Assembly: GCA_041650995.1 (NCBI GenBank)
Contig: JBAZJZ010000001.1
Span: forward strand, 299,302 to 363,301
DNA: 64,000 nt
Origin: Patescibacteria group bacterium
GTDB taxonomy: Bacteria; Patescibacteriota; Patescibacteriia; XYB2-FULL-38-15
Reading direction: 5' to 3'
The notes under the pieces are model-generated. The model made no database searches and was not told the origin of the DNA. It saw only the letters and a list, made by a program, of their open reading frames with translations. Below, piece after piece: positions 350-56,066 of this stretch (position 1 is the stretch's first letter; each line of letters begins with the position of its first letter). The position numbers and the translations under genes were made by a program.

Positions 350-425
350 AAATTTAATATTATTCTTTAGTTCTATAATTTTATTATCTCATTATCTTGT
401 CATCTGGTCAAAATAAAGGTTTCTT

Positions 426-456
426 TGGCTTCGGGGGTGGGATTCTTTCCGAACCC
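426..456. repeat. partial copy of tRNA-Asn 3' end (distal att-like repeat); a shorter echo catggctccg at 487-496
   Basis: 19/20 identity to 12485-12504, followed by gaacccc after a 5-nt insertion. Confidence 0.65.
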
Positions 457-549
457 CAACAATGAAAAAACGAGTATCTAGTGACACTCATTTTTTCATG
501 GCTCCGAGCTGTGAGAGAACTTAGAACTATCATTTTAAGCGGTTGGAAG

Positions 550-612
550 TCCTACGAACTGGACGCGGCCGTGGATATGCTGGAAGGAAAGTTCCCACTA
601 AACTACTAATTC
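550..612. repeat. 63-bp direct repeat copy A (pairs with 1053-1115)
   Basis: tcctacgaactggacgcGgccgtGgatatgctggaaggaaagttcccactAaactaCtaattc; 59/63 identical to copy B; flanks the 108-aa membrane protein gene. Confidence 0.8.
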
Positions 613-649
613 GATAAATTCCCTAAAAACTGGCGAGGAAATGAGAAAA

Positions 650-976
650 TTACTTTTTATACCCAACTACTAAATATAAAATTCCCGGAATAAGGGGTGT
701 AAGCAAATTAACGCTGAAGTTTGCGTCCGTTAAAAGTCCGACAACAAAACCGATTATTATAGGAATGATCACAAGAAATCCTCCTGCCTTGGGATATTTC
801 CAACCCAAAACCAAGCCGATAAAGACCAGTGGCATCATGGCCAGCGCGACATTTTCCCATAATGAATAATCCGGCTTGGCAAACGGCAAAGGATTGCCGT
901 AGCCGAAATAAAACGGCAAGGTAAAGATTAAAATACACAATGCAAGTATTCTGGCAACCCATTTTATTGCTTTCAT
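650..976 (-). CDS. small polytopic membrane protein (108 aa), unknown function
   Basis: ORF track; about four hydrophobic segments; bracketed by the 63-bp direct repeats. Confidence 0.5.
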   Translation of the reverse strand: MKAIKWVARILALCILIFTLPFYFGYGNPLPFAKPDYSLWENVALAMMPLVFIGLVLGWKYPKAGGFLVIIPIIIGFVVGLLTDANFSVNLLTPLIPGILYLVVGYKK

Positions 977-1052
977 ATTTTTATTGTTAGTTTAATTATT
1001 TTAAATTCCATCTATATTATAACAGGAATCGTTTTTATATGATATATGGCGC

Positions 1053-1115
1053 TCCTACGAACTGGACGCAGCCGTAGATATGCTGGAAGGAAAGTTCCCA
1101 CTGAACTATTAATTC
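1053..1115. repeat. 63-bp direct repeat copy B
   Basis: See copy A; it overlaps the stop codon of the 198-aa gene. Confidence 0.8.
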
Positions 1116-1705
1116 TTATGACGTTCTATCTCACGCGAAATTTTCTCTACCCCTTTATTGATCCCTTCAATATTTTTTGCCATCTCGTAAATTGGTGGCG
1201 TACCAAGCTGCCGTTCAACTAAACTCTTAAAACCCATAAGGTATTTATCGTTATAAGTATGTTCAAGGGAGTGATCACTATATTCCAACGAGATGGTCAC
1301 ATCTTTTTTCTGCAGGTCGTCTACTCTACCTACCAAAGAGAGTAAGGGAATTTTTATAGTTTGTTGAGGAGCGAGGGTGGGAAGACCGTTTTTTATAATT
1401 TCGATCTCGTTAAGATTTTCCTTCTCATTAAAAAGGGTCAAATTTCCGTCCACAATAAAGGAAATATTTCGAGCGATTCCGTTCCCGTAGTTACCGATCA
1501 CTAACTCTATCAAATTCAGCCAATCTTCCCTTTGAGCAATAAAAACTGCTATCCGAGGACGTCTATTTTCCTCCTCAGTTTTAGACATCAGCTGAACTGT
1601 GCGTTTCGTTTGCCATGCATAATAGGCCGTTATAACCACTAGCAGTAAAGTAGCAACTGCCTGAACAAAACCGCTATTATTATTTAACCAATTGACTATT
1701 TGCAT
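1109..1705 (-). CDS. hypothetical protein with N-terminal transmembrane anchor (198 aa)
   Basis: ORF track; N-terminal hydrophobic helix (AVATLLLVVITAYYAW); starts 5 bp after the 1261-aa ORF, so probably co-transcribed. Confidence 0.55.
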   Translation of the reverse strand: MQIVNWLNNNSGFVQAVATLLLVVITAYYAWQTKRTVQLMSKTEEENRRPRIAVFIAQREDWLNLIELVIGNYGNGIARNISFIVDGNLTLFNEKENLNEIEIIKNGLPTLAPQQTIKIPLLSLVGRVDDLQKKDVTISLEYSDHSLEHTYNDKYLMGFKSLVERQLGTPPIYEMAKNIEGINKGVEKISREIERHKN

Positions 1706-1709
1706 AAAA

Positions 1710-4700
1710 TTAATCCCAACGTAAATCTGTTAAATCTGATTCGATATCATGACCTTTAGCTTCGTTTTCGTATGACTCAGAAATAGACTTAAGCAATGCT
1801 CCAGTTCTTGGCCATCTATTTTTTACAGAATCACTCATAGCCTTATATCTTTGAGATAATTCACGCTCCTGCTTTCCTCCATCCATTAATCCGCGAGAAG
1901 TGACTCCTCGGCTATTATATATTTCAACTTGAACATGTTCGTCAATCGTCTTACTATTGAGCTTCTCTATAAGGTTTCTTACGGCTGTATGAGGCCATAC
2001 TCCATCTGGATCGCTGGGTGCATGGGCTAGTATAAAGCCTATCTGTAAATCGCCACCGATTGTGTGATTTGTTTCGGCACATTTCTCCCTGGCAGATTCG
2101 ACCCACTCAGTCAATTCTTTTTCATCGACACTTCCGTCACTTTTTACGCCCGGCAATAGATACCAAGAGTCTAGTGCTTCGCGGGCAACACGTGCTCGTC
2201 TTTCAAGTAATATATCATCCACTTTTTCTTTTTCCGGATCGGGCGCACGATCATCTCGCCTGTAAATAAATGAAATTAATTGGGCAAAAAAACCTGGGTC
2301 TTTTTGTAATAATCTATGAATCGCAGTAGATGATGAAGTATATCGTTTTAAATCGTCAAAAAGAGCAGCGAAAGGCCATTCTAATTTAACCATTTCTTCC
2401 ATGGAGAGATCATCATTTTTATAGAGCTGATCGAAAACATGACCCAAATGATATTCCTCCATTACACCTGCTTTTAACTTTTTATCCTCAAGCTTTAAAA
2501 TCTCTTCGAGTAATCGTTTAAGTAATATACTTGGAAGTAATAACTTGGGATCGCCCGCAATCCGTAATGCCACCTCTGGCCGTTTTACATCGAGTAGTTT
2601 TTCAATAGCAATAGGTGCTTCCTCGCTTTTGTCAGCCCTAGAATAACCGCTTGCAATTTTCCAATAAGCCTCCTCGGCCTCTTTACCTTGGGAGTTAACG
2701 GCTGACCAGGTTTCCGCGTTTTCTGGTAATCCAAGATACAAAAGCGCACACGCTTCAGATGAATAATTCCCCTTGGTTTTTAAACGTTTGATTTGCTGCT
2801 CAACCCATCCTGGTCCAGCGACCTCAACTCTTCCAAGTGCGTATCCTCGGATAAGAAGCGATGCATCGCCAATTCGGTCGATCATCCCATCTAAATTTTT
2901 TGCATCCTCTTCCTCGTCACAGATTACTTTACCGAGCGCATGACCAAGAACTCCTACGTATTGGATCGTTCCAGCATATTCGATAATTCGCTCTAAGGAT
3001 GCCTTGTCGAGTACCTCACGAGCCACTTTTTCTCGACTCGCATTTATAGTGGTATCCTTTGCGTCATATCCTTTTGGCTCCCCCTCGGGTAATCGTGGCC
3101 ATGGATCACTTAAAAGCCAGCCAACACGGTCCAGTATGTCTTCGGGTTGGAATTTTTCAAGCACTCGATATAGAGCAGGGACTTGTTTTTTTCTTTCATC
3201 ATCTCCATAGCTATTGACCCAATTACACGCCTCTCTAATACATTGGAGCAACCTAATTTTTTCTTCCCTTGAAAATGAATTAATATCGGCTTCTTCGAGT
3301 GTATTTAAAAGTTTTTCCCTGATTTCTAAAGGTAGTCGCGTAAATTCGTCGACGGATGAAATAAGATTCTCTCTTGAACATGCTAAATCGGTAAGTTTCG
3401 GTATTAATCCAGCCACATACTTCTGATGAGTCTCATTGCCTTCTGGCTCAAGTCCACGGCGATTGCCACCCATATCGCGCCAGCGAAACCGGTGTGCTTC
3501 GCTCATAGAACCATCCCCAAAATAATGCTGAGCGAATTTCCAAACAGTCTGCGAATCTTTAACAGTTATTGTGTCCCATGTAGCCAAACGTTCTTCTGGT
3601 GTTGCATACGTTTGTGGAAGCCCAGGAACAAAAATATCTTTCAAACTATTTATGGCTCGATTATTCCAGGTGCCGCCCTTATCAATTCTGGCTAGATCAA
3701 ATAACAAATTCACTGCGCGAAAAAAATATTCTGAGCTCCATGCCATACCCTCTAATGCCCAAAGTAAGCCAGAATGTTTACAGTCACCAAATATACCTCC
3801 CTCGTCAGTCATTAATTCCTGAAAAAGAGCTGGAAATTTTTTTATTTGTTGTTCTGTGGCCTCCATAAAATCATCTGGGGCAGCCTCAGCAAGAAGTGGA
3901 GTGACGTCTTTCAAAGATGCCCAAGTCTCCCATTTATCTGCATTAGCAAAAACTTCTTTGACTACTTGATTAGCAAAGGTTTGTGTAGATGAAATATGCG
4001 AGGAACGATTTCCATATACCGCAATTAGGACTAATGATTCCACTATACCGGTTCTAAGCCATTCTGAGTAAGGGTTTGATTTACCGTAGATTCCCGCTGC
4101 CCATCGTTTATCAGCAGACAATTCATATTTTGGGTCTGTCTTAGTAAGAACTGAAAGGATCGCTCGTTCAAATAGCTTCAAATCAGCTTCAGTCAAATGC
4201 TGTGCGAGCATAAACCATGCATCCAGTGGAGATTTAAGCATCCAAATGCTCCCGACTTTACGTATTGGAGCGTCATCAGTTGAAAGAAATGGTTTTAATT
4301 TTTCAATAAATTTATCGTGCGATTCTCCTGATAAAAGCTCAATAACTTGTCTATCTCCGTCCTTGCGTTCGTCCCAAGAACCAACAAATAAAACAGGCAA
4401 TAAAACCCTGGCTGAGGTTTCTTCCGCCCAGGTTGGGGCCTTTGCACTGGATAAAAATAGATGCCGACGCAGCACCGGAATACTTCTGCCCATATCACGT
4501 GCTATACGTTGAGCCTCTACTTCAGATAGACCATTTTTATTTAAATTCTTCTCAATTATTTCGCGTCTAGGACGGGATAATTCAAAAAGATTGCTTCGAA
4601 AATCGATTGATTTAGAATCAGCGCTAAGAAAAACATAATGACCTTTTTCAACTGCAAAACCTGCTGCTTCCCGGCACTCTGCCGGAGCGGCTATAATAAG

Positions 4701-5495
4701 AGAATTCTGGAAAGTAGTAGCACAAGACCTTAGCTGGTTAATGTTTTCAACTAATACGCAACGAGACAGGGCTCGTATTTTTTCGTTTTCAGGAAGGTTT
4801 GCAATCGCACTATACAAGAATGCAAATGGTTCATCGGGAGAATCTCCGCGGACCTCAAGAATCGAAGGACCTTTGGCTATCCATTGCTGAATCCTTTCCA
4901 TATCTGAAAGGCGGCCGCCAATAACAATCTCCGTTGTCATTTTAGGTTTTGTTGCAGCTGACCATTCTTCCCAAAAACCTTCTATATCACGAATGTTATC
5001 TGATAAATTCTTAATTTGTCTGCCCAACCATAGAGCCACGGCTGGAGCTAAATCAAGCCATTGCTCAATAGCATCGGCAGCAATTACTCTGACATCTTTC
5101 CAAGCGGCAGTGGCTCTTTTTTCGTTTTGCCATTTTACTCTACCAGGCCAAGCTCTGGGAGTAACAAAAACAAAACTGGTATCTTTCTGGGTAAACCCTA
5201 AAGGATCGGCAGTGCGTTTTAAGTAATCCTCTTCTGCTTTTTTACCTGGCGAAGCTTCTGTTCCGATCTCCCAAGCAGAACTTCCTGTCGGGAAAAGAGT
5301 AGAAGCTACGGGTGTTTTTAAACGACCATCCCATCCGGGATTTGCAACGCTGTCACCACTAGGAAACTCAATTTCTTCAATGGTTGGAGCAGTAGCAAAA
5401 ACAAGACGGCGGATAAGTTCCGGCAACGTCTGAGCACAATGTCGTTGATTGCTAGTTATCCAATTTTTAATATCTCCTGCTGTTATCCACTTCAT
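1710..5495 (-). CDS. large uncharacterised protein (1261 aa); island cargo, possible defence/abortive-infection component
   Basis: Single uninterrupted 3.8-kb ORF, Trp-rich, no clear P-loop apart from a weak AAGIYGKS; no family recognised by eye. Confidence 0.7.
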   Translation of the reverse strand: MKWITAGDIKNWITSNQRHCAQTLPELIRRLVFATAPTIEEIEFPSGDSVANPGWDGRLKTPVASTLFPTGSSAWEIGTEASPGKKAEEDYLKRTADPLGFTQKDTSFVFVTPRAWPGRVKWQNEKRATAAWKDVRVIAADAIEQWLDLAPAVALWLGRQIKNLSDNIRDIEGFWEEWSAATKPKMTTEIVIGGRLSDMERIQQWIAKGPSILEVRGDSPDEPFAFLYSAIANLPENEKIRALSRCVLVENINQLRSCATTFQNSLIIAAPAECREAAGFAVEKGHYVFLSADSKSIDFRSNLFELSRPRREIIEKNLNKNGLSEVEAQRIARDMGRSIPVLRRHLFLSSAKAPTWAEETSARVLLPVLFVGSWDERKDGDRQVIELLSGESHDKFIEKLKPFLSTDDAPIRKVGSIWMLKSPLDAWFMLAQHLTEADLKLFERAILSVLTKTDPKYELSADKRWAAGIYGKSNPYSEWLRTGIVESLVLIAVYGNRSSHISSTQTFANQVVKEVFANADKWETWASLKDVTPLLAEAAPDDFMEATEQQIKKFPALFQELMTDEGGIFGDCKHSGLLWALEGMAWSSEYFFRAVNLLFDLARIDKGGTWNNRAINSLKDIFVPGLPQTYATPEERLATWDTITVKDSQTVWKFAQHYFGDGSMSEAHRFRWRDMGGNRRGLEPEGNETHQKYVAGLIPKLTDLACSRENLISSVDEFTRLPLEIREKLLNTLEEADINSFSREEKIRLLQCIREACNWVNSYGDDERKKQVPALYRVLEKFQPEDILDRVGWLLSDPWPRLPEGEPKGYDAKDTTINASREKVAREVLDKASLERIIEYAGTIQYVGVLGHALGKVICDEEEDAKNLDGMIDRIGDASLLIRGYALGRVEVAGPGWVEQQIKRLKTKGNYSSEACALLYLGLPENAETWSAVNSQGKEAEEAYWKIASGYSRADKSEEAPIAIEKLLDVKRPEVALRIAGDPKLLLPSILLKRLLEEILKLEDKKLKAGVMEEYHLGHVFDQLYKNDDLSMEEMVKLEWPFAALFDDLKRYTSSSTAIHRLLQKDPGFFAQLISFIYRRDDRAPDPEKEKVDDILLERRARVAREALDSWYLLPGVKSDGSVDEKELTEWVESAREKCAETNHTIGGDLQIGFILAHAPSDPDGVWPHTAVRNLIEKLNSKTIDEHVQVEIYNSRGVTSRGLMDGGKQERELSQRYKAMSDSVKNRWPRTGALLKSISESYENEAKGHDIESDLTDLRWD

Positions 5496-5496
5496 A

Positions 5497-5512
5497 AATT
5501 ATTTAAATAATT
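5497..5512. promoter_or_regulatory. 16-bp perfect palindrome AATTATTTAAATAATT in the divergent promoter region between the 1261-aa ORF and the LexA-MTase gene; candidate operator
   Basis: Exact dyad symmetry, read directly. Confidence 0.4.
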
Positions 5513-5596
5513 ATTCACAATAGAGGGTATTCCATTTTCGTAAGATTTTCGGTATACTATAAATATATCACTTAGTTTTAAAAACATCAATCCATT

Positions 5597-7195
5597 ATGC
5601 CTATACCAATTACAAAAAGACAAAAAGAAGTTTTAGACTTCATTAAGGGGTTCGTAAAAAAGAAGAAATATCCCCCAACTCTAGAGGAAATATGTAGTGG
5701 GCTTAAGCTTTCCGCTGTATCTACTGTTCATCAACACATTGAAGCTCTTGCCGAAAAAGGATACCTAAAAAAGGCCGGCAATAATGCCCGGTCAATTGAT
5801 GTGAGCGAACCAGAAACAATGATTAAAATTCCTCTACTTGGAACAATTGCGGCCGGAGAACCGATTGAAGCAATTCAGCAAAATGAATTTATTGCTGTAC
5901 CCAAAACAAAATTACCGGCGCATGGTGAAGTTTATGCCCTTCGAGTAATTGGCAACAGTATGATCGACGAGAATATTAACGATGGAGATATTGTCCTGGT
6001 TAAACATCAGAGTACAGCTGAAAACGGCCAAAAAATTGTCGCGCTTATAAACAATCAAGAAACTACCTTAAAAAAATTCTATAAAGAAAAGGGGCACATA
6101 CGTTTACAACCGGCAAATAAAACCATCGAACCTATTATTTTAGACAGAGGAACTCCATTGGCTATCCAGGGAATAGTTTTGGATGTAATAGAAAGTCAAC
6201 CAAGAATAGAGGTCTCAAACAAACAAGAGCCAAAAAAAGAGACTGCGCAGCAACTCCTTTCGCTATCACAAAAGAAAATTAAAATTTCTCATAAACCAGC
6301 CACAGATGCCGACGTGATACTTTTTCATGGTGACCGGCTTGATCTTATGAAAGGATTACCTGATAAATCCGTAAAACTTGTCGTCACTTCACCACCATAC
6401 AACATTGGCAAAGAATACGAAAAAAGAAAAGATTTAGATTTGTATCTGGCCGAACAAGAAGAAACTATAAAAGAAGCGATCCGTATTCTTACTGATGATG
6501 GCAGTATTTGCTGGCAGGTTGGAAATCATATCGGCAAAGACGGTGAGGTCTTTCCGCTCGATGCGCTCATTTATGCTATAGGGAAAAAACTAGGTCTTAA
6601 ATTACGGAATAGAATTATTTGGCGATTTGGGCACGGCCTACATTGTACAAAGAGGTTTTCAGGACGACACGAAACGATTGTTTGGTTTACCAAGGGCGAT
6701 AATTATACTTTCAACCTTGATCCTGTCCGCGTGCCCCAAAAGTATCCAGGCAAAAAGAATTTTAAGAAAAATGAAAAGTATGGAACCTTATCAGGCAATC
6801 CCCTAGGAAAGAACCCTGAAGATGTGTGGGATATACCAAACGTCAAAAATAATCATCCGGAAAAAACAAATCATCCATGCCAGTTTCCAATTGAGCTTAT
6901 AGAGCGTTTGATATTATCCATGACCAACCCGGGAGATGCTGTGCTTGATCCGTATTTGGGCGTAGGGAGCGCAATCTGCGCTGCAGTGATTCATAACCGC
7001 AAAGGATATGGATCGGACATTATGAAGGGGTATTTGGATACTGCTGAAGAAAGAGTCAAGGCAGCTGCAAATGGCACACTAAACCGCCGGATGATGGGAA
7101 CACCGGTTTATCAACCAACCAGCAATGTAAAGCTTGCTGAATTACCAGATGAGTTTAAGAAAGCTCGTGAGAGTCTATTTGGGCCCGGGCTTTGA
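5597..7195 (+). CDS. LexA-like repressor (HTH plus S24 autopeptidase) fused to a beta-class DNA N4-C/N6-A methyltransferase (M.BglII-like)
   Basis: N-terminal half: LexA wHTH (TLEEICSGLKLSAVSTVHQHIEALAEKGYLKK), Ala-Gly cleavage site (IAAGEPIEA), Ser nucleophile (GNSMIDENINDGDIVLV) and Lys (TLKKFY). C-terminal half: VVTSPPYNIGKEY (motif IV DPPY-type) followed by LDPYLGVGSAICAA (motif I FxGxG); this beta-class order is read as N4C/N6A. Confidence 0.8.
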   Translation: MPIPITKRQKEVLDFIKGFVKKKKYPPTLEEICSGLKLSAVSTVHQHIEALAEKGYLKKAGNNARSIDVSEPETMIKIPLLGTIAAGEPIEAIQQNEFIAVPKTKLPAHGEVYALRVIGNSMIDENINDGDIVLVKHQSTAENGQKIVALINNQETTLKKFYKEKGHIRLQPANKTIEPIILDRGTPLAIQGIVLDVIESQPRIEVSNKQEPKKETAQQLLSLSQKKIKISHKPATDADVILFHGDRLDLMKGLPDKSVKLVVTSPPYNIGKEYEKRKDLDLYLAEQEETIKEAIRILTDDGSICWQVGNHIGKDGEVFPLDALIYAIGKKLGLKLRNRIIWRFGHGLHCTKRFSGRHETIVWFTKGDNYTFNLDPVRVPQKYPGKKNFKKNEKYGTLSGNPLGKNPEDVWDIPNVKNNHPEKTNHPCQFPIELIERLILSMTNPGDAVLDPYLGVGSAICAAVIHNRKGYGSDIMKGYLDTAEERVKAAANGTLNRRMMGTPVYQPTSNVKLAELPDEFKKARESLFGPGL

Positions 7196-7849
7196 CCCGT
7201 TGTATTTGCGAAGTTTTATTTTTGCTAGAGCCTCTGTTTTATTTGTTTTGAAAAGCTCTCTAAGAGTTTGGGATTTTGTTTTTTCTTCATCGGTCAAGCC
7301 GATACTTAAAACGAATACCGGAATATCAATATTACTTTCTCCTCGATTCTCAAAATCAACAAGTAGCTGTTCAAATGAGGAAACGCCGGTAGACATCAAT
7401 TTTACTAGCTCACTACTAGGCACGATCTCTATTCCGCATTCGATATATTTGAGATTTTTGAAAATGATCATCTTAGAAAAAATGTCATAACCCATAAAGG
7501 CATATTTTCCAAACTGAATTTCCAACCCAACTTTATTTTTTATTCCATCCATTTCACGAAATCTGCCTTTACCAAAAGCATGACGTGGCTCAACGAAATC
7601 CCGTTTCTTACCGTCTTTTGATTTCTCGGTCCAACCCTTTTTGTGAAGCTCATGTTTTAAATAATCATTCATGTCCACCGGCGAGAAGAGAACTTGTCCT
7701 TTTTTAGTTTTTTCTTTGCTCTCCTTCGTTAAACAAATAGTGCTATCCAAGGATTTTATTGCATTAAAAACTTCCTGAAGTTCTTTCGGGTGTTTTTCTT
7801 TGAGAAATTTCTCTCCGCCCTTAAATGAATAAGTATTGATAACCTTCAT
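7175..7849 (-). CDS. type II restriction endonuclease, BglII/BstYI family
   Basis: 224 aa. By-eye similarity to BglII: FSPVDMNDYLKHELHKKGW versus FDPVGTNQYIKDELVPKHW, and GLEIQFGKYAFMGYDIF versus LVEVQFSNYPFLLNNTV. Tail-to-tail with the MTase, overlapping it by 21 bp. Confidence 0.65.
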   Translation of the reverse strand: MKVINTYSFKGGEKFLKEKHPKELQEVFNAIKSLDSTICLTKESKEKTKKGQVLFSPVDMNDYLKHELHKKGWTEKSKDGKKRDFVEPRHAFGKGRFREMDGIKNKVGLEIQFGKYAFMGYDIFSKMIIFKNLKYIECGIEIVPSSELVKLMSTGVSSFEQLLVDFENRGESNIDIPVFVLSIGLTDEEKTKSQTLRELFKTNKTEALAKIKLRKYNGSKPGPK

Positions 7850-8230: not shown

Positions 8231-8431
8231 ATGTTGCCCCAAGAAGCAGTCCAACAATTCAAAGAATTATACGAAAAACGCTACGGCGTAAATCTCACTG
8301 ACGAGGAGGCTTCTTTGCGCGCTAACAATCTTTTTAATCTTTATAAAATCACCTATATCGGTGAACCTTCAATAAAAGACTTTAATAAAAAAGTAGTGAA
8401 AAGCCATGACCTCAAACCAAACCATAATTAG
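8231..8431 (+). CDS. hypothetical small protein (66 aa)
   Basis: ORF track only. Confidence 0.3.
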   Translation: MLPQEAVQQFKELYEKRYGVNLTDEEASLRANNLFNLYKITYIGEPSIKDFNKKVVKSHDLKPNHN

Positions 8432-8714
8432 CGAAATCCAATTCTACCCCGTTAAGCCCAAGGACGGACTCCTCGGGTTCGTTTCGTTTGTCCTGGACGG
8501 AAAATTCTGGATGGGGTCAGTGGCAGTATTCAGCAGGCCAGATGGCAATTACAGGTTGGTTTATCCGACACGTAAAGTAGCGGGTCAGAATATTAATATT
8601 TTTCATCCGATCACATATGAGGTCGGCCAACAGGTCGAAGTGGCCGTCAGTGAAAAAGTAGCTGAAATATTTAGTGAAAATTATGGACCAGACGAACCAA
8701 CAAGAAGCGAATGA
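8406..8714 (+). CDS. spoVG: SpoVG-family protein
   Basis: GFVSFVLDGKFWMGSVAVFSRPDGNYRLVYPTRKVAGQNINIFHPITYEVGQQVEVAV matches the SpoVG core (ASITIDNEFVVHDLRVIDG...RTPDGEFRDIAHPIN). Confidence 0.6.
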   Translation: MTSNQTIISEIQFYPVKPKDGLLGFVSFVLDGKFWMGSVAVFSRPDGNYRLVYPTRKVAGQNINIFHPITYEVGQQVEVAVSEKVAEIFSENYGPDEPTRSE

Positions 8715-9192: not shown

Positions 9193-9813
9193 ATGAATCA
9201 ACAACCTACAACTTCAAAGATGCCAAAAGAAACCGAGCAGCAATACACGGCTTGGCTTTTGTATTGCGAATACGGGAGCATCGACAAACTGCTTCAGGCT
9301 TGGCAAGGAATCGAGAGGCGGACAAAGGCGGATGAAAGGCGGACAGAATTTGAAGCTCTAATGGAGAAATTAGGTAATCCTCCGGCGCGAACCACCATAG
9401 GAGAATGGTCAATAAAATATCAATGGATAAAAAGAAAAGAAATGAAGATAGCGGAAGATTTGGAAGCTCTACGAGAAAAGACGAAAAAAATAAAGCGAGA
9501 AAAGCTCCATAGGATCGCTGAAATATTTGACCGAATTACTAACAAAATTCTCAAAGGGCTTCGAGGAAATGAAGAACCAACTATTTCAGAATGGAAAATG
9601 GTCTGGGACATGTTTCAGATCGAGCTTGGCAAACCTACCACCAGAGGCGAATTAAAGACAGAACCAGAACAACGACCACTGACTCCCGAAGAAAAAGAGC
9701 ACGGAAAGAGACTTCATAAAGCTGTGGAATGGTATTTGGAAAACCAGCTGGATGATGAAGACAAATGGCAAGAATTCCAAAAGCTCATTGAGAAAAATAA
9801 GAAAATGAGATAA
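9193..9813 (+). CDS. hypothetical protein (206 aa), charged/coiled-coil
   Basis: ORF track. Confidence 0.5.
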   Translation: MNQQPTTSKMPKETEQQYTAWLLYCEYGSIDKLLQAWQGIERRTKADERRTEFEALMEKLGNPPARTTIGEWSIKYQWIKRKEMKIAEDLEALREKTKKIKREKLHRIAEIFDRITNKILKGLRGNEEPTISEWKMVWDMFQIELGKPTTRGELKTEPEQRPLTPEEKEHGKRLHKAVEWYLENQLDDEDKWQEFQKLIEKNKKMR

Positions 9814-10915: not shown

Positions 10916-12526
10916 ATGAACTCAGAGGAATTAACAAAAATAACATATTTCCTCTACGCCAGAAAATCATCTGAACAAGAAGACAGACAAGTACTCTCAA
11001 TTGATTCTCAGAAAAGTGAGCTTGAATCATTAGCTAAAAAAGAAAGACTAAATATTGTAAGTCGGTTTGAGGAATCATACTCGGCCAAAGGCCCGGGCAG
11101 AAAAATCTTTAATGAAATAATCGCCCGGATAGAAAAAGGTGAAGCCAATGCTATTCTTGCGTGGCATCCAAACAGGCTCTCAAGAAACTCGGTTGATACC
11201 GGATATTTGATCTATCTCATGGATCAAAACAAATTGCTTGAAATCCGGACTCCGGGCCAGACATTCAAAAATACTCCCAACGATAAATTCCTTCTTAACC
11301 TGCTTTGCAGCCAGGCCAAACTTGAAAACGACAACAAAGGCATAGATGTGAAGCGCGGGTTGAGGCGCAAAGTAGAATTGGGATGGCATCCCGGTCCGGC
11401 TCCGATCGGCTATTTAAACACGCCCGACAAAGAAAAAGGATTTAAGACAATCCGTAAAGATTCAAAAATGTTCCCGATTATCAGGAAAATGTTTGATATG
11501 GTCTTGAGCGGGAGCTATACCGCACCAAGAGTGCATGAGATCGCAGTCAATCAATGGGGTTTAAAGAAATTGGCCCGAAGCGGCTTCTATCGCACGCTTT
11601 ATAATCCCTTCTATTATGGCTGGTTTGAATGGCCAAGAGGTAGTGGTAACTGGCATAAAGGTAAACACGAACCGATGATCACGCGCGAAGAATTCGATCG
11701 CGTCCAACAGCTACTCCATCCTGGTCAAAAACCAAAGCCCGAAAAGCACGTCTTCGCTTATACCGGCATGATCCGCTGTGGCGAGTGTGGCTGTATGGTT
11801 ACGGCCGAAAATAAAGTTAAAAGAAATAAGCAGGGTGGCGAACATTATTATACTTATTACCACTGCACGAAGCGCAAAGGCCCGTGCAGTCAGCAATGCA
11901 TTGAAATAAAGGATTTAGAAAAGCAGATAGCAAAAACTCTGACCGGCATTGAAGTACCGCCAGAATTCCACAGCTGGGCTATGACATGGCTCCGGGCCGA
12001 GAACGGCAGAGAATCAAGCGACAGAAATAACATTCTTAACAATCTACAAAAGAATTACGAGGTGTGTGTCCGTAAGCTGGACACGCTGATTGATATGCGC
12101 GCTGCCGGGGAGATCACTGAAGAAGAATTTAACAAAAAGAAATCGACGGTGACCCAGGAAAAAGCCAGACTCCAGGAACTTTTAAATGACACTGACAACC
12201 GCGTAGACAGCTGGCTCGATGTTGCAAACCGGGTCATTAGATTCTCTGAAGACGCAAAAGAAGCATTCGAAAACAAAGGACTTCAGGCCAAGAAAATCAT
12301 TCTGGCCGGCCTCGGTTCGAACCTCCTCTTAAAAGACAAAATACTCGAGATTGACGTACAAAATGCACTCCTGCCCATGCAACTCGTCTCTTCCGGGGCG
12401 AAAATAAAAACAAACCGGTTAGAACCGGTCAAAGTGAGCCTAAATAAAGAGAAAAGCAGAGCTTTTGGCTCTGCAAATCCCACATGGCTCCGGGGGTGGG
12501 ATTCGAACCCACGACCAATCGGTTAA
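10916..12526 (+). CDS. large serine recombinase (resolvase N-domain, recombinase domain, Zn ribbon); putative island integrase
   Basis: YARKSSEQEDRQ...SIDSQ catalytic Ser region, NRLSRN, CGECGC...YYHCTKRKGPC zinc ribbon. The last ~14 codons are read through the tRNA-Asn 3' end. Confidence 0.85.
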   Translation: MNSEELTKITYFLYARKSSEQEDRQVLSIDSQKSELESLAKKERLNIVSRFEESYSAKGPGRKIFNEIIARIEKGEANAILAWHPNRLSRNSVDTGYLIYLMDQNKLLEIRTPGQTFKNTPNDKFLLNLLCSQAKLENDNKGIDVKRGLRRKVELGWHPGPAPIGYLNTPDKEKGFKTIRKDSKMFPIIRKMFDMVLSGSYTAPRVHEIAVNQWGLKKLARSGFYRTLYNPFYYGWFEWPRGSGNWHKGKHEPMITREEFDRVQQLLHPGQKPKPEKHVFAYTGMIRCGECGCMVTAENKVKRNKQGGEHYYTYYHCTKRKGPCSQQCIEIKDLEKQIAKTLTGIEVPPEFHSWAMTWLRAENGRESSDRNNILNNLQKNYEVCVRKLDTLIDMRAAGEITEEEFNKKKSTVTQEKARLQELLNDTDNRVDSWLDVANRVIRFSEDAKEAFENKGLQAKKIILAGLGSNLLLKDKILEIDVQNALLPMQLVSSGAKIKTNRLEPVKVSLNKEKSRAFGSANPTWLRGWDSNPRPIG

Positions 12527-12559
12527 CAGCCGAACGCTCTGCCACTGAGCTACCCCGGA
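12485..12559 (-). tRNA. tRNA-Asn (anticodon GTT), CCA encoded
   Basis: Reverse complement tccggggtagctcagtggcagagcgttcggctGTTaaccgattggtcgtgggttcgaatcccacccccggagcca gives a cloverleaf with a GTT anticodon loop. Confidence 0.9.
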
Positions 12560-53811: not shown

Positions 53812-54017
53812 TTCAAACATTTTTTGAGGCCACCACCCGACTGAAATTCATGTTAACTAATTTGAGCGGGTGACATTCTCGAAAAATGCGGGGAGTTACT
53901 AAGCATAAACTTTTCACTCCCCCGAGGCTCTGCTTCCTCTGGGCTCACCACTGCGCAGGTGACGCGTTCGGGCGCGGCTGGCGAACGTTGACCTTGCGGT
54001 CAAGCGATGGCAGCTAT

Positions 54018-54191
54018 CTATCTCACGCCTACCTCCTTCTTTTCGCCGAGCAGGAACCGGACGAACTGGTCCAGCTGCGGCTCGTACCGCTGCATGAGCC
54101 GGGCCGTCGCCTGCGGTGTGATCCGGTCGGCGATTCTGACCACAAGTACTGTGGAGACGAGAATCGCCGTGCTAGCGATCTCCCATGCCAT
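54018..54191 (-). CDS. GC-rich small membrane protein (57 aa from MAWEIAS...)
   Basis: RBS agggag; start chosen at the internal Met of the track ORF. Confidence 0.4.
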   Translation of the reverse strand: MAWEIASTAILVSTVLVVRIADRITPQATARLMQRYEPQLDQFVRFLLGEKKEVGVR

Positions 54192-54211
54192 CTTCACAAT
54201 TTTTCTCCCTT

Positions 54212-54493
54212 CTAGCCGATCTTCCGAGGATTTGTTGCGACGAACACCAAGTACGCCGCGACGAGCAGAACGACGTTCAGGAGGACGGCACCGAGATTGG
54301 CGGCCGGTCTCCACCAGGCGTTCGGCAACGCCAGATAGAACTCTCTGTAGATCGTCGCCCCTCCCGCGAGGACAGCCACGATCGTGAACACGAAGGCTCC
54401 ACCTGGAGAACCTTGCGCCCAGCGGAGGATGATCATCGCCCCGAAGGCAACGATCATCACCCAGAACGCGATCGTTCCGATTGCTTCGAGCAT
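54212..54493 (-). CDS. GC-rich small membrane protein (93 aa)
   Basis: ORF track; three TM helices. Confidence 0.45.
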   Translation of the reverse strand: MLEAIGTIAFWVMIVAFGAMIILRWAQGSPGGAFVFTIVAVLAGGATIYREFYLALPNAWWRPAANLGAVLLNVVLLVAAYLVFVATNPRKIG

Positions 54494-54505
54494 CTTCTTC
54501 TCTTT

Positions 54506-54640
54506 CTACCCGCCGAGGACCAGCAAGGTCCCGACGAAAGCGAAAAAGACAATGAACAGAAAAACATTGCCCTCGGCTCCGTCTTCTGCCCCACCGACAA
54601 CCATGAGCCGCCGGCGTTCCAGTTTTTGCACTCCTTTCAT
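54506..54640 (-). CDS. GC-rich small membrane protein (~45 aa, MKGVQKLERRR...)
   Basis: The upstream part of the track ORF is translation of the leader repeat; the start is trimmed to the first Met downstream of the repeat. Confidence 0.35.
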   Translation of the reverse strand: MKGVQKLERRRLMVVGGAEDGAEGNVFLFIVFFAFVGTLLVLGG

Positions 54641-54898
54641 GAGAATGTACAGGTACGCTCCTACCACCAAAACTCCCAATGCCAACCTGAACAATCTCTT
54701 TTCCTCCTTCTTTGAAAGCACCACTTCTCGTGATGCCCTCGAAAAAGGGCGGAACTCATTTTTTAGGTGGGTTCCGCTAACTCGCTTAAGTTGCTCGTCG
54801 CGCATTACTGCGTGATTTCGCAAAACTTTAGCGAGCGCTCAACCTAGGATGGTTGAACTTTCCTGGCATACTTTGGAAGCCAGGACGTTGGGAAGGAA
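54641..54898 (-). repeat. leader repeat unit 1 (homologous to 55286-55586 and 56067-56333)
   Basis: Shared blocks gatgccctcgaaa.agggcggaactcatt..ggtgggttccgct...gcaagccgctcaacctaggatggttgaactttcctggcatactttgg. Confidence 0.8.
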
Positions 54899-55285
54899 CT
54901 ACGAGCAGCCCTCGTCGACCGTGCCGTCGCAGTCGTCATCGACCCTATTGCAGTCCTCTTCGGTCGAGACGAATTGCGACTTGCAGGCAGTCCACTCACG
55001 GTTCAGGCAGGTGCTCATGCCGATTGCGCAAATGCCACGCGCGCCATCCACCGAACAAGTCTGTACCGAACCCTCCGGCACCTCCTCTAGACGGCCGTCC
55101 TCGTAGACGAGGCACCCTCCTTCTACCGCCTCCGTACCCGCCGGCTCGTCGATGATAGGCTGGCTCGTACCGCCGAAATCGAAAGTGTAGTACTGCGAGA
55201 GCCAAGCCGCGAGACCGATGCCGACGAGAATCAATCCCACGACGATCGCCGCGACCTCCGCTCTCTTCGACCTCTGCGTCATCAT
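54899..55285 (-). CDS. GC-rich secreted Cys-rich protein with C-terminal DDDCDGTVDEGC metal-binding-like motif (128 aa)
   Basis: Signal anchor; 10 Cys; RBS aggaaggaagggg. Confidence 0.5.
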   Translation of the reverse strand: MMTQRSKRAEVAAIVVGLILVGIGLAAWLSQYYTFDFGGTSQPIIDEPAGTEAVEGGCLVYEDGRLEEVPEGSVQTCSVDGARGICAIGMSTCLNREWTACKSQFVSTEEDCNRVDDDCDGTVDEGCS

Positions 55286-55586
55286 ATCTCTCCCTCCCCT
55301 TCCTTCCTTGTTTGTTGCCCAATGAAGGGCAGTGTAAAGAACTTTGTCCCGGACACGCGAGATATTCGCGGCCGAGAAACTTTCCTCTCTTCGAGCTCAC
55401 CACTTGCATGATGCCCTCGAAAGAAGGCGGAACTCATTTTTGAGGTGGGTTCCGCTGGAGCTCGCTTGGTTGCTTGTCGCACACTTGCGTGTGAGATTTT
55501 ACAAACCTTTGCAAGCCGCTCAACCTAGGATGGTTGAACTTTCCTGGCATACTTTGGTTTGAATTTGCCAGGACGTTTGGAAGGAG
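55286..55586 (-). repeat. leader repeat unit 2
   Basis: See unit 1. Confidence 0.8.
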
Positions 55587-56066
55587 CTACGAACTGCAGC
55601 CAAGCATCTGCGGCGTCAGCAACAGATTGCCTTCGCCGCCGATCCACGGATGGCGAATCACTGCCGGTTCCACCGAGAGACCGTCAACGGTAACCATGAG
55701 ACGGTCGAGCATGCCCAGATCGCCGTACCAGCGTCCGTCGGTACGTCGAGCATTGACCTCGACGCCTCCCGCGCGACCGCAGGCCTGCGCCTTGGTCAGC
55801 CGCACCTCGAACATGGCCGGCCCGTAGGACACATCTCCGTTCGAGGCATCACCGGGATCGACTGCGTGAAAGATGTAAATCTCGGCCGACTGCTCATCCT
55901 TGGAGTTAATCCGAACCGTCACGGAGTCCCGCTGCTTGTCCGCGCGCTTGTCTGCCAGCAGAGCCAGAAGACCCAAGCTCAACATGCCGAACATGAAAAA
56001 GCAAACCGCACCCACAAGCCACCAATTGCGCCACCAGTTGCTGAGAGCCTTCAGTGCCTTCTTCAT
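55587..56066 (-). CDS. GC-rich membrane-anchored protein (~160 aa from MKKALKALSNWW...)
   Basis: RBS aaggagaag; the longer track ORF (to 56162) runs into the repeat. Confidence 0.45.
   Translation of the reverse strand: MKKALKALSNWWRNWWLVGAVCFFMFGMLSLGLLALLADKRADKQRDSVTVRINSKDEQSAEIYIFHAVDPGDASNGDVSYGPAMFEVRLTKAQACGRAGGVEVNARRTDGRWYGDLGMLDRLMVTVDGLSVEPAVIRHPWIGGEGNLLLTPQMLGCSS

Follow-up and report, generated by a model that had tools for sequence, protein, structure and literature searches.

STAND/NLR immune receptors are thought to switch from a resting to an oligomeric state by nucleotide binding, and the tetramerisation of the Avs1 to Avs4 proteins needs ATP binding. The defence system PD-λ-4 (Vassallo et al. 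2022) is now named Avs8. Its protein Avs8A joins a nuclease of Mrr type to a STAND NTPase and a sensor built of repeats, binds the monomer of HK97-fold capsids and then degrades double-stranded DNA, and Avs8B, the product of a small gene downstream of Avs8A, is dispensable in Escherichia coli (10.1101/2025.07.02.662641). A natural Avs8 without the nucleotide-binding residues, KpAvs8, has also been published and was assayed for phage defence alongside other Avs proteins (PMC13581612 and its preprint). Here we describe a gene encoding a protein of 1261 amino acids (aa) which can be compared with these systems. It lies in a stretch of 64,000 nucleotides (the window) of contig JBAZJZ010000001.1 from a Patescibacteria group bacterium (assembly GCA_041650995.1), and all coordinates given are those of the window. 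The gene and the parts of its predicted product are the following (ORF, open reading frame).

1710 to 5495, minus strand: putative Avs8-like, P-loop-less STAND-type receptor-nuclease of 1261 aa, the core of the finding (ORF)
5001 to 5495, minus strand: restriction-endonuclease-like domain (PD-(D/E)xK, Mrr/FokI-type), residues ~1-165 (invariant D56, G57, E76, K86 and FVTPR at 110-114)
4581 to 4940, minus strand: degenerate nucleotide-binding domain (NBD), residues ~186-305 (model and Avs8A alignment)
4230 to 4580, minus strand: helical domain 1 (HD1) and winged-helix domain (WHD) of the STAND module, residues ~306-422 (model)
1713 to 4229, minus strand: presumed sensor of the ligand, an all-α solenoid (HEAT/ARM-like) formed by residues ~423-1261 (model)

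The best explanation for this gene, to which we give a probability of about 0.7, is that it encodes a stand-alone Avs-type (STAND-derived) anti-phage pattern-recognition receptor belonging to a very large sister family of Avs8A in which nucleotide binding has been lost, and that the two small membrane proteins encoded downstream of it are lineage-specific passengers, accessory at most, and not effectors. It is very probable that the 1261-aa protein serves in anti-phage defence and acts as a sensor in the cytoplasm, and its likely effector is the nuclease-like N-terminal domain of the same polypeptide.

The protein has no sequence match in Pfam, NCBIfam or the PDB, and it matches PHROG 18693, of unknown function, from end to end. 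The link to Avs8A appears only when full-length profiles are used. For this comparison EcAvs8A (WP_000963924.1, 1283 aa) was taken from an E. coli chromosome (L092:5358-9209) and aligned with six plasmid-borne homologs of 31-55% identity. When the alignment of 77 members of the window family was compared by hhalign with these seven Avs8A homologs, a probability of 98.9% (E 3.8e-17) was obtained over 1,034 colinear columns, covering residues 1-1137 of the window protein and 2-1169 of EcAvs8A at 15.4% identity, whereas the reversed Avs8A alignment used as a control gave 0.2%. Family profiles compared with the single EcAvs8A sequence gave 85-87% (E 4-7e-6). Moreover, a hidden Markov model of the seven Avs8A sequences matched residues 577-797 of the window protein (E 1.7e-12 when compared with this protein only), and it also recognised 38 of the 80 family members. 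The PADLOC profile PD-Lambda-4_A gave weak, colinear and partial matches spanning ~150-220 residues of the helical region, with E values of 0.0019 for the window protein and of 0.017 to 2.7e-5 for other members, and a search seeded with the NBD segment of EcAvs8A gave only fragments of up to 319 aa. At the level of sequence profiles, homology to Avs8A can be considered established across essentially the whole 1261-aa protein. Apart from this comparison, the E. coli FORC_069 locus carries, between EcAvs8A and the integrase and on the opposite strand to EcAvs8A, a gene for a 1248-aa 'hypothetical protein' (WP_000871159.1; L092:1144-4890, minus strand).

The two halves of the protein were modelled from an alignment of 85 sequences, with a pLDDT of 94.0 and a pTM of 0.90 for residues 1-650 and of 92.6 and 0.84 for residues 641-1261. 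In the model the N-terminal domain (~1-165) has the topology α-β-β-β-α-β, residues ~186-305 form a five-stranded α/β domain and residues ~306-422 a helical domain and then a winged helix, so that the tripartite NBD-HD1-WHD fold of STAND proteins is present in the predicted structure. The C-terminal α-helical repeat (TPR-like) sensor of Avs8 is found as well. CED-4, NB-ARC, Avs5 and Apaf-1 are the top fold matches of the model, and the best Foldseek match among solved structures is EcAvs4 bound to the phage portal (8dgf; E 3e-7, probability 1.00); a search of the PDB with the profile of the N-terminal half returned only noise. The architecture, as modelled, is that of an Avs protein, in which an effector nuclease is followed by a STAND module and a repeat sensor.

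Avs8A and the window protein are close in length (1283 and 1261 aa) and have the same order of parts: an Mrr or restriction-endonuclease-like domain, a linker motif (WLE..PAV..WL), NBD-HD1-WHD and an α-helical sensor. Both possess the sensor motif LAW/LAY...PQT/SGT-HA..R, and a longer solenoid motif, LLWALE-LAWS-Y..RA..NR.INSL..IF.P..PQT.A...R (residues 575-636), is common to Avs8A. In both cases the gene lies on an integrase-bearing island and is followed by a small gene of unknown function. The two-gene operon of Avs8A and Avs8B has no match in the window, where the 198-aa gene found downstream is unrelated to Avs8B, but this operon is not a strict criterion because Avs8B is dispensable in E. 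coli. The same logic of effector, STAND module and repeat sensor, with a nuclease as effector, is also found in Avs1 to Avs4 (AVAST; EcAvs4-portal 8dgf, SeAvs3), although these have no sequence-level similarity to the window protein, whose family is without a P-loop. CED-4, Apaf-1 and the plant NB-ARC proteins differ from the window protein in effector and sensor, and the latter has no nucleotide-binding motifs. KpAvs8 is by its description P-loop-less like the window family, and it may belong either to this family or, as a degenerate member, to the canonical Avs8 clade.

These descriptions bear on what the initial annotation of this DNA had claimed. Its statement that the large protein shows no recognisable motif or family holds for ordinary sequence searches and fails for structure and profile-profile comparison, by which the protein falls in the Avs8 lineage of STAND-type receptors and is not unprecedented. 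The profile and structure searches which it proposed gave the fold and the Avs8A match, without a significant call by PADLOC. The idea of a cytoplasmic sensor of defence type was very probably right, the protein being a full-length remote homolog of Avs8A (PD-λ-4A).

A clear difference from Avs8A concerns nucleotide binding. The Walker A motif GLSGVGKT (or close variants of it) and a Walker B motif 'hhhhDN' are kept in all seven Avs8A homologs, whereas the window protein has GDSPDEP in place of GLSGVGKT and no Walker B. In it the aligned positions read G217-D-S-P-D-E222-P-F and, opposite 'ilvlDN' of Avs8A, L266-I-I-A-A-P; in the model the former is surrounded by a β-strand (212-216), a loop and a helix (221-232). 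The former P-loop of the family can be written as [AG][DE][ST]x[DE]E[AV]hAF, with E222 present in 72 of the 77 sequences and A225/F226 in 70-71 of them, and no conserved GxxxxGK[ST] occurs anywhere in these 77 members. The conserved acidic loop which replaces Walker A would be incompatible with phosphate binding in the manner of a P-loop. Since the NTP-binding motifs are absent, the 1261-aa protein should be regarded as STAND-derived and as having no working STAND NTPase. In the N-terminal domain D56, G57, E76 and K86 do not vary among the 77 sequences, whose identities go as low as 28%. The counterpart of D56 in Avs8A is the Asp of the motif 'GGID', and that of E76 is the Gln of 'FQAK'. From these residues we infer a probable nuclease activity of this domain.

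The family is very large. A scan of GTDB found it in 383 species genomes from nearly every phylum, among them Parcubacteria, Saccharibacteria, Gracilibacteria, Elusimicrobia, Proteobacteria, Actinobacteria, Cyanobacteria, Bacteroidota and Firmicutes, and clustering at 50% identity gave 5,344 clusters with E <= 1e-3, 2,885 of them with E <= 1e-30. The best 150 of the 5,344 clusters were all core members, and none of these 150 linked the family to an outgroup whose P-loop is intact. The length of the core is strikingly constant (~1250-1265 aa), and Klebsiella pneumoniae also has members such as WP_125346660.1 (1253 aa). Approximately 23% of the members (84/362) carry an N-terminal extension, which is mostly an XRE-type helix-turn-helix (HTH), more rarely an ArsR-type winged HTH or a LexA DNA-binding domain and in a single case a tyrosine-integrase domain. 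To our knowledge HTH fusions have not been described as a feature of Avs proteins. Fused members include P0147, P0177, P0184, P0187, P0142, P0163, P0150 and many PF01381-bearing proteins, as well as those of the plasmid loci L081 and L082. In databases the family is labelled 'hypothetical', 'HTH transcriptional regulator' or 'HigA family addiction module antitoxin', the last two names being due to the fused XRE-type HTH of ~100 aa, which the window protein does not have. As a sister family of Avs8 it is large, lacks annotation and has a dead NTPase.

Members are carried on islands, plasmids and transposons (25 plasmid records, 12 of them conjugative), often beside restriction-modification (R-M), Abi or toxin-antitoxin genes. 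In viral sequences they are rare, with one weak match in 50,697 phage records and five in 2.9 million IMG/VR contigs. Among the close relatives one ends a type I R-M operon (HsdM-S-R-YgjP) and another follows a helicase-methyltransferase-ResIII cluster, and some relatives adjoin AbiE. In locus L084, which encodes a protein 93% identical to that of the window, an HTH_17 gene is placed 5 bp upstream of the family gene. The plasmid hit H26 was considered as a bridge to Avs8 and was rejected, being a gene remnant of 110 aa. On the Salmonella plasmid pCFSAN024579 (L090:5013-5345) the 110-aa remnant of a family member, annotated as 'hypothetical protein', is found among toxin-antitoxin genes, and it matches residues 365-471 of the window protein (E 6e-9).

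The genes downstream of the 1261-aa gene, and the repeat which brackets the second of them, are listed here.

1109 to 1705, minus strand: 198-aa protein with one N-terminal transmembrane segment (ORF, hydropathy)
650 to 976, minus strand: DUF7670 membrane protein of 108 aa with four helices, a cassette that is dispensable (ORF; Pfam PF24709, E 1e-13)
552 to 613, no strand: left one of two ~62-bp direct repeats on either side of the DUF7670 gene (alignment of window 480-640, 980-1130 and locus L089; second blastn high-scoring pairs)
1052 to 1113, no strand: right one of the two ~62-bp direct repeats, which begins at the 198-aa stop codon (alignment, blastn)

The initial annotation had placed the three ORFs correctly, all on the minus strand, and hydropathy confirmed its single-pass 198-aa protein (hydrophobic segment at residues 11-29) and its 108-aa protein with four segments. 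It read them as a candidate abortive-infection operon with a giant cytoplasmic sensor and small membrane effectors, a model in which the two small proteins would kill by membrane disruption. Both small proteins do have predicted transmembrane segments, the 198-aa gene begins only 4 nt past the stop codon of the large gene, and the DNA similarity to L084 (89.3% over 4,868 bp) takes in precisely these three genes, starting 7 bp before the large ATG and stopping where the DUF7670 gene ends, with unrelated flanks. At the depth of the L084 comparison, and only there, the three-gene block has moved as a unit. The grouping is nevertheless not fixed, since in locus L089 (92% DNA identity to the window) the DUF7670 gene is precisely missing; the ~62-bp repeat is present there in one copy and in the window in two, the right one occupying part of the 132-bp gap between the 198-aa and DUF7670 genes, which means that recombination at the repeat either added or removed the gene. 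The 198-aa gene accompanies the large gene in L084, L088 and L089 only, at DNA identities of at least 89%. The initial annotation had named a lack of conserved co-occurrence with the membrane partners as a refutation, and a phmmer search (E <= 1e-3) of 80 loci from different species, whose family members are 28-64% identical to the window protein, found nothing similar to either of the small proteins. No neighbour of any sort was conserved when the flanking ORFs of these loci were clustered, save for an AbiEi/AbiEii pair in seven loci of alphaproteobacterial type, and where a tightly coupled gene follows on the same strand (~10 of 77 loci) it is a different one each time. The 198-aa protein matches PHROG 9607 (E 1e-10), of unknown function, and has no relatives among viral contigs; it showed no similarity to Avs8B (BLASTP, E 1.8), which unlike it has no transmembrane segment, and DUF7670 was not found mentioned in the literature. 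Furthermore, the large protein has a nuclease-like domain of its own as the likely effector, and the small downstream gene of the homologous Avs8 system is dispensable. The proposed module of sensor and membrane effectors is not a real conserved system, and killing by the membrane proteins in this locus is very improbable.

Somewhat less improbable, although still unlikely, is that the protein is a sensor or decoy which does not kill by itself and serves some other immune protein by binding the ligand for it or by regulating it or, in its HTH-fused forms, acts as a transcriptional regulator. Some plant sensor NLRs with degenerate P-loops work with helpers, and the loss of Walker A and Walker B, the Gly in the column of the canonical catalytic Lys and the labels as regulators or antitoxins given to the ~23% of members with HTH, LexA or ArsR domains would suit such a role, as would the Rhizobium plasmids in which the gene that comes 64 bp after a family member is a canonical Avs8-like one and keeps GASGLGKS intact. 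However, neither the 80 GTDB loci nor the window island contains an Avs8-like or other STAND neighbour, so most members appear to be solitary; D56, E76 and K86 are absolutely invariant in 77 sequences of 28-93% identity, and this speaks for a functional active site; and the published phage-defence assay of the P-loop-less KpAvs8 was made with a single Avs protein. A role outside immunity, in the maintenance of mobile elements (addiction, plasmid or island stabilisation) or in competition between them, could be suggested by the frequency of the family on conjugative plasmids, transposons and integrative islands and by the database names derived from the N-terminal XRE-type HTH. We consider it hardly probable, as those names depend only on a fused domain absent from the window protein, the core of 1250 aa is homologous to a proven anti-phage receptor and no toxin partner is conserved. 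The tandem pair on the Rhizobium leguminosarum plasmid pPR4 (L081:5665-9783 and L081:9847-13692, the second encoding a distant Avs8A-like protein of 1281 aa; also H61 and H62) resembles the sensor/helper NLR pairs. Such pairing as a general rule was rejected, with no case in the 80 GTDB loci.

Several results weigh against the Avs-type receptor preferred here. Its role in defence is drawn from a remote homology (15.4% identity) together with context, and PADLOC gave no significant call for the 1261-aa protein. The family profile showed no similarity to the 182-aa NBD segment of EcAvs8A when this was compared alone (probability 0.1%). These last two results set the family, at least by its sequence, clearly apart from canonical Avs8. 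Nothing in the Avs8A alignment corresponds to the final ~125 residues, in which G1206, G1207, E1210 and D1250 are invariant. In the nuclease-like domain the column of the canonical catalytic Lys of (D/E/Q)xK is G78, giving ExG where Avs8A has the catalytic QxK, and an invariant Lys follows 8 residues further on; this K86, in an invariant K86-A87 (with D90 and R94) on the following helix, aligns to no Lys of Avs8A. Nuclease activity is therefore not certain. In the PD-(D/E)xK superfamily there are known cases of a catalytic lysine that has been relocated. The DNA-binding domains carried by about 23% of the members are atypical of Avs proteins, and the neighbours elsewhere are often ordinary cargo, so that the enrichment in defence islands is an apparent one.

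If the protein is an Avs-type receptor, its mode of action can be proposed by analogy with Avs8A, Avs3/4 and KpAvs8. The solenoid would wrap a conserved protein which the phage makes while infecting; this might be the monomer of the HK97-fold capsid, a guess taken from Avs8 only. Binding of this ligand would release autoinhibition and drive an oligomerisation that is free of ATP, and the clustered N-terminal nuclease domains might then degrade DNA so that the infection is aborted. It may also be speculated that tight transcriptional control replaces the missing nucleotide checkpoint, because DNA-binding modules recur in the family and its surroundings (the fused XRE, LexA and ArsR domains, the HTH_17 gene of L084 and the divergent LexA-methyltransferase gene of the window). 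More tentatively, and with some doubt on our part, the family might represent a very large pan-bacterial branch of Avs/STAND receptors, reaching into lineages of the candidate phyla radiation, whose nucleotide switch has been permanently replaced, with the acidic loop as a built-in pseudo-nucleotide in the former phosphate site, activation by ligand only, and safety provided by fused or adjacent HTH, LexA or ArsR control and in some plasmids by a P-loop-bearing Avs8-like 'helper'.

A large conserved family which keeps the STAND fold with an acidic loop instead of the P-loop would offer a natural system for the study of receptor control free of nucleotides. Moreover, thousands of genomes mislabel genes of this kind (~1,260 aa), which are missed by Pfam, NCBIfam and PADLOC v2; a profile of the family would therefore improve the annotation of defence genes, including those of Klebsiella, Enterobacter and Pectobacterium.

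The surroundings of the gene agree with the initial annotation, which had described its divergence from a LexA-methyltransferase region and its position on a mobile island beside an R-M system. The features concerned are the following.

5496 to 5596, no strand: divergent intergenic region of 101 bp shared with the LexA-methyltransferase gene (sequence)
5597 to 7195, plus strand: LexA-N6/N4 DNA methyltransferase fusion (library profile matches)
7175 to 7849, minus strand: BglII-like restriction endonuclease (paired with the LexA-methyltransferase)
10916 to 12526, plus strand: large serine recombinase of the island (Pfam Resolvase, Recombinase, Zn_ribbon_recom)
426 to 445, no strand: left attachment (att)-type repeat of the island, a copy of the tRNA-Asn 3' end (found from an exact 14-bp seed; 19/20 matches after extension)
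12485 to 12559, minus strand: tRNA-Asn, the integration target, with the right att repeat at 12486-12505 (ARAGORN, Rfam, alignment)

The 20-bp direct repeats of att type (426-445 and 12486-12505) have one mismatch and duplicate the 3' end of the tRNA-Asn gene. As it is bounded by these repeats and has an adjoining recombinase at its right end, the island can be delimited to ~12 kb and includes all three genes. The ORF of the serine recombinase runs ~40 nt into the tRNA-Asn gene, on the opposite strand.

The 1261-aa gene is transcribed divergently from the LexA-methyltransferase gene. The intergenic region between them has one promoter-like site on the minus strand (5590-5562); scans of 400-5700 for promoters and terminators gave no excess over shuffled sequences and do not define transcription units. 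A perfect palindrome of 16 bp, AATTATTTAAATAATT, is located at 5497-5512, 2 nt upstream of the start codon of the 1261-aa gene, and could be an operator or could have arisen by chance in AT-rich DNA. The LexA-methyltransferase contains a complete LexA module, i.e. a DNA-binding winged HTH and an S24 self-cleaving peptidase (TIGR00498, E 4e-54), and its gene is convergent and overlapping with that of the BglII-like endonuclease. A self-cleavage switch of LexA type could control or destroy the methylase of the island R-M system.

Elsewhere in the window the G+C content rises to 0.56-0.58 at positions 54000-56000, where no Rfam or tRNA match was found, compared with ~0.41 in the remaining part. 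Within the island the ORF at 8406-8714 is SpoVG-like (Pfam, E 2e-6, narrowly missing the family cut-off) and that at 9193-9813 has a weak likeness to the small terminase subunit (PHROG 6299, E 9e-5), and together these two ORFs give a hint of a phage-satellite-like element.

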